Below, piece after piece: positions 6,149-47,706 of a stretch of 64,000 nucleotides of DNA. The DNA is taken from NCBI GenBank assembly GCA_964016885.1, contig OZ024740.1, positions 329,158,001 to 329,222,000 of the forward strand, read 5' to 3'. The stretch is from Eledone cirrhosa (Eukaryota). Position numbers and translations under genes: made by a program. Positions within the stretch are counted from its first letter, which is position 1. Each line of letters starts with the position of its first letter. The notes beneath the pieces were generated by a model. That model did no database searches, had not been told where the DNA came from, and saw only the letters and a list, made by a program, of their open reading frames with translations.

Positions 6149-6690
6149 GTACATCGTTCCTTTGTCAGTCTGTATTCATATATGTATGTACGTATACATA
6201 CTTATATTTAAGTAACAGCCGTACCAAGAGTGAGAAATGAAATTTAGTTTCATTTTTTCCATTTATCGTTTTCGGTGCGCCCGGCTGATTATCTCACTCG
6301 ATATGCAAATTAGGCTGCTCAGCCGTTAATATGCATAAGGAAAGTATATACTTTCAGACGTTCAATCATCTGGCAGGAAGGTATACGTTGCTGACGATAG
6401 CTAATAAGCTTGAAACTAGTACATCGTTCCTTTGTTAGTGTTGAACAAAAGGGAAACGATGGTTGCTAAACACTGTACGGCTTAATTCGGGATGTTTATT
6501 TACAAACAAACCGAGCATTATAATAAATGTTCGGTTAATCCATACGTACATATATATATATGTGTGCATGTATATATATATACATGCTACTGTACGTCTG
6601 TATACATATATGTATGTACGTATACATACTTATATTTAAGTAACAGCCGTACTAAGAGTGGGAAATGAAATTTCGTTCATTTTTTCCATT
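6149..6690 (+). mobile_element. Retrozyme-like repeat family A, ~1.3 monomers
   Basis: Homologous to the 420-bp unit at 45732-46762. The segment AAGTAACAGCCGTAC(C/T)AAGAGTG occurs twice (~6210 and ~6638). Ends in (TA)n. Confidence 0.8.
6385..6427 (+). ncRNA. Type I hammerhead ribozyme (family A)
   Basis: ACGTTG-CTGACGA-TAGCtaataaGCTT-GAAA-CTAG-TA-CATCGT: canonical core, palindromic stem III ACTAGT, one mismatch in stem I. Confidence 0.8.
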
Positions 6691-7054
6691 TTTATATATA
6701 TATCTATATAGTGTTAGTATCATAAAGAGACAGTTTAATTTGTACATTTTATAACAGCATTCCTTTACACGTATATATACGTGTATATACATGTATATAT
6801 ACGTGTTATTTACAGTTCTATAAAAACGAAGTATAATTGTTTCTACTTTTGTCACAAGGCCAGCAATTATCCAGTACATCACTGGTACTTTATTATATAT
6901 AATATATATATAAGACAACATTCCTCTCTTTCTTACTCTATCTTTTTAGATAGATACTAAGCCATAACTCCTTATAATATCTCTCTGTCTGGCTGCCTGT
7001 CTGCATTGACTTCGCTTCTAAACACCTTTTAATTACTTATATATATATATATAA

Positions 7055-7530
7055 TTATATTAGAAATATAAGCTTTCATCGTATTTTTTACTAAAGAAAT
7101 TTTTAGCCTGATAGTGGGGTTTAGAACCTTTAGAGAATTGGAAAAAGATGAGTATTGACGTACATGGGAGTCGTACCCACGTCTTTGGTTATCCAGAACA
7201 CTGTGCTACCATTACATCAACACATCACCCATCTCCTTCCATTCAAATTAGAAGCTACATTCTTAGCAAGTAAATGACAAATAAGTATGTTTTGAAACAG
7301 TGAGCGAGTTTGAAATTAGAAATATAAGGTTTCCCCGTATTTTTGACTAAAGAGATTTTTAGCCTGATAGTGGGGTTTAGAACCCTCAGAGAAATGGAAA
7401 AAGATGAGTATTGATGTACATGGGAGTCGAACCCACATCTTTGGCTATCGAGACCACTGTGCTACCATTACACCAACACATCACCTATCTCCTTCCATTC
7501 AAATTAGAAGCTACTTTCTTAGCAAGTATT
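7055..7530 (-). repeat. ~256-bp tandem dimer, each unit carrying a tRNA-like sequence
   Basis: Two copies offset by 256 bp; the family recurs as an inverted pair at 23770-24230. Confidence 0.85.
7412..7482 (-). tRNA. tRNA-like cloverleaf (anticodon CGA, short variable arm); probable pseudo-tRNA
   Basis: Minus strand GATGTGTTGGTGTAATGGTAGCACAGTGGTCTCGATAGCCAAAGATGTGGGTTCGACTCCCATGTACATCA: A box, B box GGTTCGACTCC, paired acceptor stem, T5 run ~10 nt downstream. Sister copy at 7156-7226 has GGA. Confidence 0.55.
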
Positions 7531-7756
7531 TGTGTACAGATATTTTTGCATACACAAACAGAAAATACACCGGAAAACAGAACTACAAAGATAAAATATA
7601 ACCAAACATTGTATTTATTTCGTTAACTACGCAGCAATTTGTTTACATTTAGTTCGACTGTACGAAAGCACAGACGGCTTATGGTCATTGTTACTGCCGA
7701 TATGCCTCCTGAAAAGTCCCGCCCTCGCCGCAAGATCCGATTTTCCAGAAGAAAAA

Positions 7757-8100
7757 ATGTTAAAGCTCTGCAATAGCACACAACTTGCACTCAAGCAGAT
7801 GTTGCGTCATGTAATTGAAGCCACAATCATGATTGGAGTTGGTAGGGCAGAAGATGTATTTATTCCTCGCACCCCGTTGCTGCCAGCCGACTTACCCTTC
7901 GAGTTCAAGCGACTTCAGTTTCCAACAAAGCTGACGGTCAAACCCTAAAAGTGGCTGGCCTTCATCTGGGAAAACCATGCTTCTCCCATGGTCAAATGTA
8001 TGTAGGATGCGCTAGGGTGAGCTCGCCAAACAATCTCTTCATCTTTGCTCCCGAGGGCCGAACAAAAAACATTGTGCACTCTGAGGCTCTAACAATGTAA
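7757..8100 (+). mobile_element. Helitron RepHel (PIF1-family helicase) C-terminal fragment, frameshifted
   Basis: KLCNSTQL...VIEATIMIG...VFIPRTPLLPADLPFEFKRLQFP, then in another frame GQTLKVAGLHLGKPCFSHGQMYVGCARVSSPNNL...TKNIVHSEAL; typical Helitron helicase C-terminal motifs. Confidence 0.9.
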
Positions 8101-8959
8101 TTTATGTATTTTCTGTTACTTGGAATTTCCATTACGGTTGTACAAATTATTGTAAAGTTTGTTAAAAAATGTGTTCTCTGATCAGCCTTTATTGTTGTAA
8201 CTATCAATTTTCTTTAACGTACTGGCTGCTGAACCGGGGAATCCTAAAAACTATTTAAATCCAACATCAGAGCACGTTAACCCCCCACCCTCGTGCGTAA
8301 TTGATGGGGTTGTCTATTGTGTGTGTGTGTGTGTGTGTGCGTGTGACAGAGGGTTACATAGGGCGGTCAGGCGAATATCAAAGATAATTGGGTTCAAAGG
8401 GTCAGGGGAAGGGGTTAGACACGCGCCCAAGGGGCCAGGCAAGCTGGCGCTAACTTTAAGGGGAGATTGACGACACAAGCGTTAGGTGGAATCACCACTA
8501 TATTCCTTGCTACGTTAATTGCCAGTACATTAAACTAGCAGGCCCAGCCGGATAGCGCCTGGCGATAGGCCTGCATCAGATCTTTCAGAAAGCCATCACA
8601 ACCAGTGCGACAATAGCAGGATTGTAGCAAAACTAATGGTCCAACACCACAGTTGTAACTTTTACCACGGAATGGAGTGATTATGGTCGTTGAGCATTGC
8701 AGTGGTGGTGGTGGTATTTTTCACGCGTTAGAAATGAGTCGCCACAATAGCTCCCCCCATTGATACATACTCGGAACGACAATGTGACTTGAGAAGGCGT
8801 GCGGTATATTTGCACGGTATATTTGCACTTATAAATGTTAAAGGATTGTAAATAAAACGAGTAAATCAGACAAAGTTGGAATTCCTCTTATTAATATAAT
8901 CTTCTATACACAATCATACACACCCGTGTATATTTACTTATCTATATATATATATATAT

Positions 8960-46080: not shown

Positions 46081-46457
46081 TCCTTTGTCAGTGTTGAACA
46101 AACGAGCAACGATGGTTGCTGGACACTACGGCTTAATACGGGATGTTTGTTTACAAACACACCGAGCATTATAATAAATGTTCGGTGAATCCATACGTAC
46201 ATATATATATGTGTGCATGTATGTATATACATATACATACTACTGCACGTCTTTATACATATATGTATGTACGTGTACATACTTATATTTAAGTAACAGC
46301 CGTACTAAGAGTGGGAAATGAAATTTCGTTTCATTTTTCCTGTTTATCGTATTCGGTGCACCCGGCCGATTAACCCACTCGATATGCAAATTGGGCTACT
46401 CAGCCGTTAATATGCATAAGGTAAGTATATACGTTCAACAATCTGGCAGGAAGGTAT

Positions 46458-46500
46458 ACGTTGCTGATGATAGCTAATAAGCTTGAAACTAGTACAGCGT
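46458..46500 (+). ncRNA. Type I hammerhead ribozyme (family A), second tandem copy
   Basis: Identical to 46038-46080; cleavage predicted after 46494. Confidence 0.88.
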
Positions 46501-47224
46501 TCCTTTGTCAGTGTTGAACAAACGAGCAACGATGGTTGCTGGACACTACGGCTTAATACGGGATGTTTGTTTACAAACACACCGAGCATTATAATAAATG
46601 TTCGGTGAATCCATACGTACATATATATATGTGTGCATGTATGTATATACATATACATACTACTGTACGTCTGTATATATATATGTATGTACGTGTACAT
46701 ACTTATATTTAAGTAACAGCCGTACTAAGAGTGGGAAATGAAATTTCGTTTCATTTTTCCTGTATATATATATATATATATATATATATATATATATATA
46801 TATATATATATATATATAAAATAAACACATGAAACAATCTCGGGGCATAATTTGTAAAGTGTGTAAGCACACATAGCTAGGTAGGTAACTATTTAAAGTT
46901 TAACTAGAACTTCTAATATAGATACCTTTTACAAATTATTCCCTGATATTGTTTCATGTGTTTATTTTATATATATATATGTCAATCTATATCTAGTATA
47001 TATATATATATATATATATATATATATATATATATATATATATATATATATATATATATATATATATTTATTTATTTATTTAGGTCTGAAGGTTCACCAC
47101 TGGACAATTCCGTATGGTCAATCTTGATGTAATAATATGGAGAGTACTCAACGTAAATCAGCTTAACCGTCTTCGTTTTCAGCCCCATGGATTTTATCTG
47201 TTACATTCATTTATTATATTTCGA

Positions 47225-47282
47225 ATACCTGATGATATCACCGGATTCATACGGAACCCGGTCATTGAAATGATCATAGTAT
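47225..47282 (+). ncRNA. Type I hammerhead ribozyme
   Basis: ATAC-CTGATGA-TATCACCGG...CCGGTCATT-GAAA-TGATCA-TA-GTAT. Confidence 0.7.
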
Positions 47283-47351
47283 AATAAACCTTTCAAGGAT
47301 TTACACAAGTCCAGCCTCCTGTTATTTTATTATAATATATATATATATATA

Positions 47352-47706
47352 TAAGTATGTATGTATGTATGTATACGTACATTCATATATGTATACAGAC
47401 GTACAGTAGTATGTATATATATACACACATGCACACCTATATATATGCACGTATTACCCGAATTACGCCGTACAGTGTTTAGGCGTAATTCGAGCTGTTT
47501 GTTTGTTTACAAACAAACAAACCGAGCATTATAATAAATGTTCGGTAAACCGATACGTGCATACATATATATGTGTGCATGTGTGTATATATGTACATAC
47601 TACTGTATGTCTGTATACATATATGTATGTACGTATACATACATACTTACATTTAAGTAAGTGCCGTACTAAGAGTGAGAAATTAAATTTCGTTTCATTC
47701 TATTCT
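47352..47706 (+). mobile_element. Truncated family A copy with inverted 5' arm (no HHR retained)
   Basis: 47352-47455 is the reverse complement of ~47550-47650; ends at AAATTTCGTTTCATT then (TA)n. Confidence 0.75.

Follow-up and report, generated by a model that had tools for sequence, protein, structure and literature searches.

The window analysed here is a 64,000-nucleotide stretch of the genome of Eledone cirrhosa (assembly GCA_964016885.1, contig OZ024740.1, positions 329,158,001 to 329,222,000), and it carries five insertions of a short repeat with a hammerhead ribozyme motif, named copies A to E (Table 1). The reading that we favour, with moderate confidence and from genomic sequence, is that such hammerhead repeats are pasted into (TA)n at two fixed sites by a borrowed enzyme of the Penelope-like element (PLE) type, which joins a reverse transcriptase (RT) to a GIY-YIG domain, and that the template is probably one circular RNA. 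The repeats are classed as non-LTR (long terminal repeat) retrozymes by their short non-coding unit, a type I hammerhead motif in each unit, low GC content and the lack of an LTR organisation; self-cleavage is predicted. The case bears on the mobilisation of animal retrozymes and on the origin of the inverted arms and one-sided tail of PLEs. If the reading is right, small circular RNAs are copied as multimers into TA repeats by an RT that works from both ends of the broken DNA.

Two fixed 3' ends in TA repeats

Ends were mapped from a ribozyme anchor 215-273 nt away from them, which avoids circularity; 72 of the first 100 listed among 505 exact matches were used. Positions in the 420-nt unit are numbered q, with the phase set by window positions 46343-46762, and the predicted ribozyme cut falls after q152. 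Among 70 ribozyme-anchored arms, 25 stop at a long site (~q5), 39 at a short site (q358-376, mostly q366-369) and 6 elsewhere. Thus, 64 of 70 lie within two end windows that make up 37 of the 420 unit positions, and TA follows the end directly in 50 of 70. The short end is ~57 nt upstream of the long end in this 420-nt family, and a sister family with a 466-nt unit has its short site at q394-402. Exact junctions of the retrozyme with long TA runs number 1077 for the long end and 677 for one variant of the short end; the controls give 0. A 32-mer taken from the 3' motif is matched exactly 4561 times across the genome, which is 3.0 Gb and TA-rich, and its reversed control has 0. Past both end sites the unit sequence reads TA or TAT, which would allow base-pairing of a TA primer with the retrozyme RNA over 2-5 bases at both ends.

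Arm lengths were measured for 92 of the first 100 listed of the 1077 long-junction matches, all on contig C1. The median is 265 nt and 45 of the 92 insertions are two-armed. Only 23 of the long-junction arms exceed 425 nt, and any arm longer than one monomer occurs in 28 of the 92 insertions. The predominance of copies above one monomer, noted in an initial annotation of this DNA, is a peculiarity of the window. Four of 30 short-anchored retrozyme loci have no detectable arm.

Pairing of long and short arms

Head-to-head arms follow a pairing rule. The 240 merged regions hold 135 such pairs, 83 with both ends canonical and in TA; a long end is paired with a short end in 78 of these, two short ends in four and two long ends in one. 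When the long end is used as the anchor, which fixes one end only, the partners of the 45 paired arms are 39 short, one long and five other. The 466-nt family is very young (98-99% identity) and was sampled at 37 loci picked as the best matches to the whole unit. These comprise 24 long-short pairs, two pairs of a long with another end and 11 single arms, so that 24 of 24 canonical pairs obey the rule. Neither a strict one-long/one-short rule nor the run-off contrast described below is stated in any paper found by literature searches, which left out subscription journals and bioRxiv supplements.

The junctions between paired arms bear on how the second arm arises. In the 78 long-short pairs the 5' ends are symmetric in 10 and asymmetric in 68, with an overlap of 0-4 nt in 39. 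Arm lengths within a pair are uncorrelated, and the short arm is longer in 53 of 94 pairs, which is no significant bias (p=0.29). Another 29 single arms terminate at the short site. Because the junctions are mostly asymmetric, the overlaps short and the arm lengths uncorrelated, two separately primed cDNAs joined by microhomology fit better than fold-back. It is very improbable that priming occurs once and that the inverted arm is second-strand or fold-back synthesis resolved by an endonuclease at the short site. This explanation would agree with the variants common to both arms and with the 10 symmetric junctions, and the part of the PLE literature covered does ascribe the tail to endonuclease resolution of an intermediate (PMC8557442). 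The 68 asymmetric junctions, the 53 longer short arms, the uncorrelated lengths and the 29 single arms at the short site speak against it. PLE-type priming at two sites very probably generates the retrozyme insertions. In L1 twin priming, both target ends also prime cDNA and joining by microhomology gives an inversion. The second-primer site of L1 is variable and its arms do not overlap, whereas here the second arm starts at a fixed site and the two arms cover a common sequence.

A Penelope-like element with the same insertion rule

The window also holds a two-armed PLE insertion (Table 1). A natural tandem array of this family, with a period of 3531, settled which arm is sense and which is inverted, and an earlier assignment of the fixed ends as antisense to the open reading frame (ORF) was rejected on this ground. 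The two PLE ends are ~78 nt apart, with 10,054 exact junctions for the long one and 3,416 for the short one. Of 30 short arms, 25 have a long partner that ends in TA, and of 30 long arms, 19 have a short partner; ~8 insertions are common to the two lists of 30.

A natural copy has an intact frame of 716 residues from Met with RWR, DKT, YRDD, CxCX5C, GIY-YIG-type, CxxC and CxH motifs. These agree with the account of the Hydra clade in the part of PMC8557442 covered (RWK there, RWR here), and together with the (TA)n target and a predicted hammerhead they mark the family as a probable member of that clade. Pfam and PDB searches with the protein gave no match. The family is young: its 120 listed matches are at 97-100% identity, and ~54 of the 120 have open frames of at least 784 aa by hand count. 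The predicted hammerhead was found by pattern scan and folding, has a U3:A8 core variant and a long loop II and is sense to the ORF; a second copy sits on the inverted arm.

In contrast to the retrozyme, the PLE has a narrow zone in which its arms stop. This zone of 27 nt, with TTAGTC around 15090, holds 27 of 30 short-anchored and 19 of 30 long-anchored arms (46 of 60), with varied junctions. It may represent run-off at the RNA 5' end, in which case transcription would start near 15090. PLE transcription starts are known to fall inside the pseudo-LTR (pLTR), in the literature covered in part. Palindromic PLE stubs of ~200 bp, with a short arm of ~55 nt and a long arm of ~138 nt, occur by the thousand genome-wide (compare window 15083-15228). 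They look like miniature inverted-repeat transposable elements but match run-off from a 5'-proximal start site. A further stub of the same family, 221 nt long and 90% identical, lies at 39748-39968 of the window. Elsewhere, loci L156-L157 (C1:437198050-437214410) form a PLE array in which ~4.6 units of 3531 nt lie between a long and a short end, and PLE unit-like spacings also occur on contigs C1, C2 and C19.

The source of the enzyme

The initial annotation had attributed the insertions to a PLE RT primed at (TA)n from a fixed internal start. This view is well supported, since a Hydra-clade PLE family of this genome also targets (TA)n, has two fixed ends and follows the arm rule. A PLE helper class is likewise well supported. 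The element at 11183-15228, put forward as the matching helper, cannot be the helper itself: it is a two-armed, 5'-truncated insertion whose real frame starts at residue 42 (residues 42-717 at 11895-13922) and lacks the first 41 residues and the start codon. Intact relatives are abundant, and it is possible, as a tentative suggestion, that this Hydra-clade family is the retrozyme helper. Further PLE families that target (TA)n occur in this genome as well, and more distant PLE relatives (30-60% identity) are frequent near retrozyme loci. Fragments of distant PLEs with 32-53% protein identity are found in the window at 16690-17126, 25402-25728 and 49822-50697. The helper may also come from another clade, since (TA)n-targeting Naiads occur in octopuses, as listed in the supplement of Craig et al. 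2021 (PMC8557442), covered in part.

An autonomous PLE that uses the retrozyme as its pLTR was looked for and not found in the 240 regions. No retrozyme arm there extends, as the 3' region, into a PLE ORF, with homology tested on one PLE family, and L131/L413 consists of nested insertions piled up in a TA run. Direct joins of PLE and retrozyme with no TA between them occur at L059, L160, L306 and L411, head to head in L306 and L411. As proof of the helper these hybrids were dropped.

The RNA template

A circular RNA template is favoured as the more probable form. The initial annotation took a fixed internal start together with read-through of the cut as the sign of a PLE RT copying a circle. 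Crossing the cut is no proof on its own, since an uncleaved multimer gives the same result, but other evidence favours the circle. A template without ends is preferred because there is no run-off zone like that of the PLE, no sign of copying from a parent locus, and a one-monomer look to each insertion.

The first of these points comes from the 5' ends, counted without arms that are below 88% identity or at a region edge. Any 27-nt window holds at most 34 of the 287 retrozyme 5' ends, as against 46 of 60 for the PLE. A pile-up at the ribozyme cut, suspected early, was gone with 287 arms: among the 268 that reach the cut, 12 stop within 8 nt of it, where ~10 are expected. This count argues against a cleaved linear monomer as the template, in which the RT would jump from end to end at the cut or monomers would be ligated into mixed multimers, since failed jumps should leave 5' ends there. 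L299 speaks for such jumping and hints that cut monomers may be joined, with a whole subfamily-1 monomer between subfamily-2 stretches and both switches in an 83-nt interval that contains the cut (~0.04 by chance, for a single case chosen after looking). The interval cannot be narrowed because the subfamilies are identical there. The PLE piece in L160 also terminates at its own predicted cut. Overall, monomer jumping is quite improbable.

Signs of copying from a parent locus were sought in flanks and junctions. The 101 single arms have no common 5' flank, bar three low-complexity artefacts. No two-arm junction is repeated letter for letter except for 2 local duplications, and two coarse matches differ in sequence.

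The one-monomer look of each insertion rests on variants, which were counted without the low-complexity interval q270-369. Mismatch at common polymorphic sites is 6.8% between passes and 11.5% between arms, as against 40.9% between loci. Subfamily typing of pairs within insertions gave 22 + 12 concordant, 0 discordant and 40 uninformative ones. Rare alleles are common to both members in 17 of 64 arm pairs and 11 of 100 pass pairs, as against 44 of 3000 random pairs. In the 466-nt family, after two noisy passes were dropped, a minority allele is present in every pass at 21 of 37 loci; five are private, one of them being the window copy.

The strand bias of variants concerns an RNA step. In the 420-nt family, sense A>G changes make up 8 of 31 repeated rare alleles compared with 41 of 390 (p=0.018), and singly covered sites have 51 A>G and 22 T>C rare alleles on the sense strand (p=0.005). 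In the 466-nt family, 9 of 19 repeated rare alleles are A>G compared with 8 of 110, with counts that are non-independent. The sense A>G bias supports an RNA step more than the circle as such.

The same bias bears on the idea that a DNA rolling-circle element (Helitron or Helentron), or an element driven by a long interspersed nuclear element (LINE), carries the hammerhead by chance, which is extremely improbable. The 3' hairpin, the microsatellite-like inner block and the tandem arrays do resemble non-autonomous Helentron-type elements, and some LINEs have TA-type tails. Helitrons and Helentrons are marked by 5'-TC and 3'-CTRR ends, or by fixed termini with sub-terminal inverted repeats; a LINE-dependent short interspersed nuclear element (SINE) has one 3' end with a poly(A) or LINE-derived tail. 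In the retrozyme ends there is no 5'-TC/3'-CTRR pair in either orientation, no terminal inverted repeat and no poly(A). The 5' ends are variable and spread round the unit, and both 3' ends are internal, so that Helitron/Helentron and LINE-dependent SINE candidates were rejected, the latter as judged on the retrozyme end sequences. The two-end rule is moreover common to the PLE, and the strand-biased A>G changes point to an RNA step.

A model for insertion

In the model that we favour, tandem retrozyme transcripts would self-cleave, probably as dimers with a 2-bp CTAG-type stem III, and the monomers would be ligated. The borrowed RT/GIY-YIG enzyme, possibly itself a dimer, would make a predicted double-strand cut in a TA run. 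One cDNA would then be primed from each break end, with one RNA molecule providing both the long and the short site, and each RT would travel round the circle for a variable distance. The two cDNA ends would anneal via microhomology, followed by fill-in. Single arms may result when one cDNA is lost or when a cDNA is joined directly to target DNA, and long arrays may be extended afterwards by local duplication.

A wider version of this model is offered only tentatively. A dimeric PLE enzyme would allot the two RT starts to opposite break ends, with both subunits travelling round the same RNA circle, and PLE inverted arms and one-sided tails would in general originate in this way. Arrays would be records of single circular RNAs, including A-to-I edits, and PLE-retrozyme hybrids would come from one complex that handles both RNAs. 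A 496-nt family, described below, would indicate that a canonical hammerhead is unneeded for this route.

Several observations weigh against the model. The arm rule is broken by 5 of 83 canonical pairs. PAc, a PLE from Anolis, has two starts with no strand difference reported in the part of PMC11167929 covered, which leaves the arm rule unexplained by that work. The same source reports that the anole PLE uses uncleaved RNA in vitro. The PLE pile-up at the stop zone may in part reflect a stub family that is copied as a whole, though its junctions vary. The retrozyme and the tested PLE family have no common sequence (best 17 nt, E=0.18), and the PLE-retrozyme joins may reflect later insertion with deletion, since the same 874 kb contains 36 PLE stubs among 2706 TA runs. 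Same-subfamily arms could also stem from bursts that involve a single subfamily each. Alleles confined to one pass have no strand bias (41 vs 38), and the A>G excess in repeated alleles consists of small and partly non-independent counts. Finally, 8 private alleles of the 466-nt family are present in more than one but not all passes, and several arms of the 420-nt family are mosaic (L221, L299, L325). Partial-pass alleles and mosaics weigh against a single monomer circle because a circle gives none without later duplication or conversion.

The main alternative keeps the enzyme and its two starts and replaces the circle by an uncleaved linear multimer from long, fairly homogeneous arrays. It would account for mosaic arms and partial-pass alleles, suitable long arrays exist (L134, L136, L137), and uncleaved RNA is the main in vitro substrate of the anole PLE in the part of PMC11167929 covered. 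Yet units of long arrays differ by 2-5%, while young insertions are uniform, with the 21 of 37 loci that carry an allele in every pass. The missing common 5' flank, the scarcity of exact junction repeats and the lack of a run-off point such as the PLE has are also contrary to it. On balance, the linear multimer is unlikely, and the circular template remains our preferred reading.

Retrozyme units have expanded into satellites of 10 to ~50 units at L134, L136-L137 and L142-L143, some with two-unit higher-order repeats. The 2-5% divergence of units in long arrays often comes with a two-unit periodicity, from which a dimer circle was considered for L044 and L134. It was rejected, and long arrays were not used as evidence for a circle, because later local duplication fits the periodicity better.

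The retrozyme unit and the copies in the window

Both the 420-nt and the 466-nt unit are non-coding, with frames only in microsatellite, and their motifs have thousands of matches, tandem and dispersed. A type I hammerhead motif is found in every full unit and consists of CTGAYGA, a stem II of 4-5 bp, GAAAC-TA-GTH and a stem I of 5-7 bp. The core is unchanged in 178 of 203 passes, and minor letters amount to 1.1% in the core vs 3.3% in the rest of the unit. A 2-bp palindromic stem III is the hammerhead form reported to act as a dimer (PMC4209133, covered in part). Rfam at its gathering threshold finds no ribozyme in the window, and Hammerhead_HH9 matches only below that score. The cut-to-cut monomer computed as a circle folds at -142 kcal/mol vs -96 +/- 5.5 for 40 shuffles. 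The arms are 5'-truncated tandem permutations with no LTR-type terminal direct repeats; a separate search for primer-binding sites was not part of this comparison.

A perfect ATGCAAAT octamer is present at 6303, 17508, 22467, 45964 and 46384 of the window and is conserved across the two retrozyme families, in 140 of 162 passes. We take it to be an element of small nuclear RNA (snRNA)-type promoters. Newt satellite 2 is reportedly driven by an snRNA-type promoter (PMC2220036, covered in part).

Table 1. Mapped features of the window, in window coordinates
Feature	Position	Strand	Description
Copy A	6147..6693	+	single arm with long end, ~1.25 monomers of 428 nt
PLE inverted short-end arm	11183..11894	-	same insertion as the long-end arm; terminates in (TA)n at ~11186
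PLE long-end (sense) arm	11898..15228	+	5'-truncated RT-GIY-YIG frame, 3' region, long end at 15228
PLE type I hammerhead (predicted)	15047..15130	+	pattern scan and fold
PLE arm stop zone	15083..15109	+	TTAGTC around 15090
Copy B	17339..17940	+	466-nt sister family; long-end arm 17388-17940, 1.19 monomers
496-nt array	18132..21444	+	6.7 near-identical units between TA runs
Copy C	21915..22939		two-armed: inverted short-end arm 21915-22158 (minus) and long-end arm 22154-22939
Copy D	45732..46764	+	long-end arm, 2.46 monomers of 420 nt, flanked by TA runs
Copy E	47352..47706		two-armed: inverted short-end arm 47352-~47481 (internal gap) and long-end arm ~47482-47706

Four of the five window copies belong to one family (unit 420-430 nt), and copy B belongs to the 466-nt sister, which is ~66% alike. 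A hairpin motif followed by (TA)n closes all five, at ~6693, 17940, 22938, 46764 and 47706. Copy A starts with a 21-nt piece of the cut region fused to q327 and has its hammerhead core at 6391-6421. Copy B has its core at 17608-17638 (HH9 E=1.9e-07, under the gathering score). The long-end arm of copy C spans ~1.6 monomers with a core at 22555-22585, in which C3 is changed to G, and its unit reaches ~500 nt through a longer inner TA block. Copy D has two cores, at 46044-46074 and 46464-46494 (HH9 E=0.0065). Copy E is below one monomer and has no hammerhead.

Much of the initial annotation of these copies held. Its end point ~150 nt upstream of the cut, and not at the cut, is measured at 147 nt in the 420-nt family and ~165 nt in the 466-nt family. 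Its lengths for four copies agree with the 1.2-1.3, 1.19, ~1.6 and 2.46 monomers found here. The proposal of one common 3' end in (TA)n was right for the long end, which is fixed in all five copies, and missed a second fixed end, the short one, also in (TA)n on the inverted arms of copies C and E. Inverted 5' segments do begin at 17339, ~21915 and 47352 as described; such inversions are more plausibly explained by priming of a second cDNA than as generic 5' inversions. Copies C and E obey the one-long/one-short rule, and copy B breaks it, with an inverted piece of 50 nt (17339-17388) that terminates at neither fixed site and has no TA.

Comparison with known systems

Retrozymes and their circles have been published (PMC7229834, PMC4209133, bioRxiv 10.64898/2026.07.22.740005), and the comparisons in this section hold for the parts of these and the other papers that were covered. 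A PLE helper has been proposed for metazoan non-LTR retrozymes (PMC7229834; Li, Clavereau and Pollet 2026, bioRxiv 10.64898/2026.07.22.740005), as has tandem cDNA from a circle (Cervera and de la Pena 2020, PMC7229834), and PMC4209133 also gives a circle model. The repeats described here share with metazoan non-LTR retrozymes a non-coding unit of 420-470 nt, low GC content, a type I hammerhead in each unit, a dispersed and tandem occurrence and PLEs in the same genome. They differ in that insertion ends are unmapped in the text of both papers proposing the helper, while here two ends, a (TA)n target and an arm rule are described. Xenopus families have 21 PLE matches, whereas the retrozyme here has no pLTR homology to the PLE family tested. 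Circles of metazoan retrozymes have been shown experimentally; the circle proposed here has indirect support from DNA.

Inverted arms, one-sided tails and (TA)n targeting of PLEs are likewise published (Craig et al. 2021, PMC8557442). Hydra-clade PLEs resemble the present insertions in their (TA)n target, partial tandems, inverted 5'-truncated arm, tail at one end only and hammerhead, whereas the retrozyme has no ORF. Their tails measure 30-40 nt compared with ~57, 70 and 78 nt here. The tail is described as "often" at one end (PMC8557442), in contrast to the near-strict rule found here.

PAc, a Poseidon element, has two adjacent internal RT starts that define its tail, cuts and extends both strands and is a predicted dimer (Frangieh et al. 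2024, PMC11167929). The retrozyme shares with it two adjacent internal starts, predicted from its end maps, downstream of the hammerhead and an AT-rich target. Unlike the retrozyme, PAc is autonomous and uses uncleaved RNA as its main substrate, and its starts lie ~90 nt after the cut compared with 215-273 nt in the retrozyme (PMC11167929). From the end maps the RT start sites on a 420-nt RNA can be predicted exactly; they also yield a pairing rule and, in the run-off point of the PLE, an internal control. The young, abundant PLE family with intact frames makes the model testable in the published in vitro assay. The words "ribozyme" and "retrozyme" do not occur in the main text of an Octopus vulgaris repeat paper (PMC13282606), as far as covered.

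Other repeats in and around the window

The 496-nt array was overlooked in the initial annotation. Its family is dispersed and young, with 166 matches in 39 scored candidates, and has two fixed 3' ends (~q340 and ~q287, ~53 nt apart) and some inverted arms. Although CTGATGA is present in the unit, neither a canonical hammerhead nor an octamer was detected there. A hammerhead-like motif with a long loop II lies at window 39558 on the minus strand and also in L414. L412:1370-2895 holds a palindromic stub from another family that carries a hammerhead of its own on each arm. Broken RT-like frames at 34327-35182 (minus) have no Pfam match and look by eye like an RTE-type LINE. Two tRNA-like heads at 7412-7482 and 23917-23985 (minus) probably belong to a tRNA-derived SINE, and one of them sits inside a 256-nt tandem duplication at 7059-7528.

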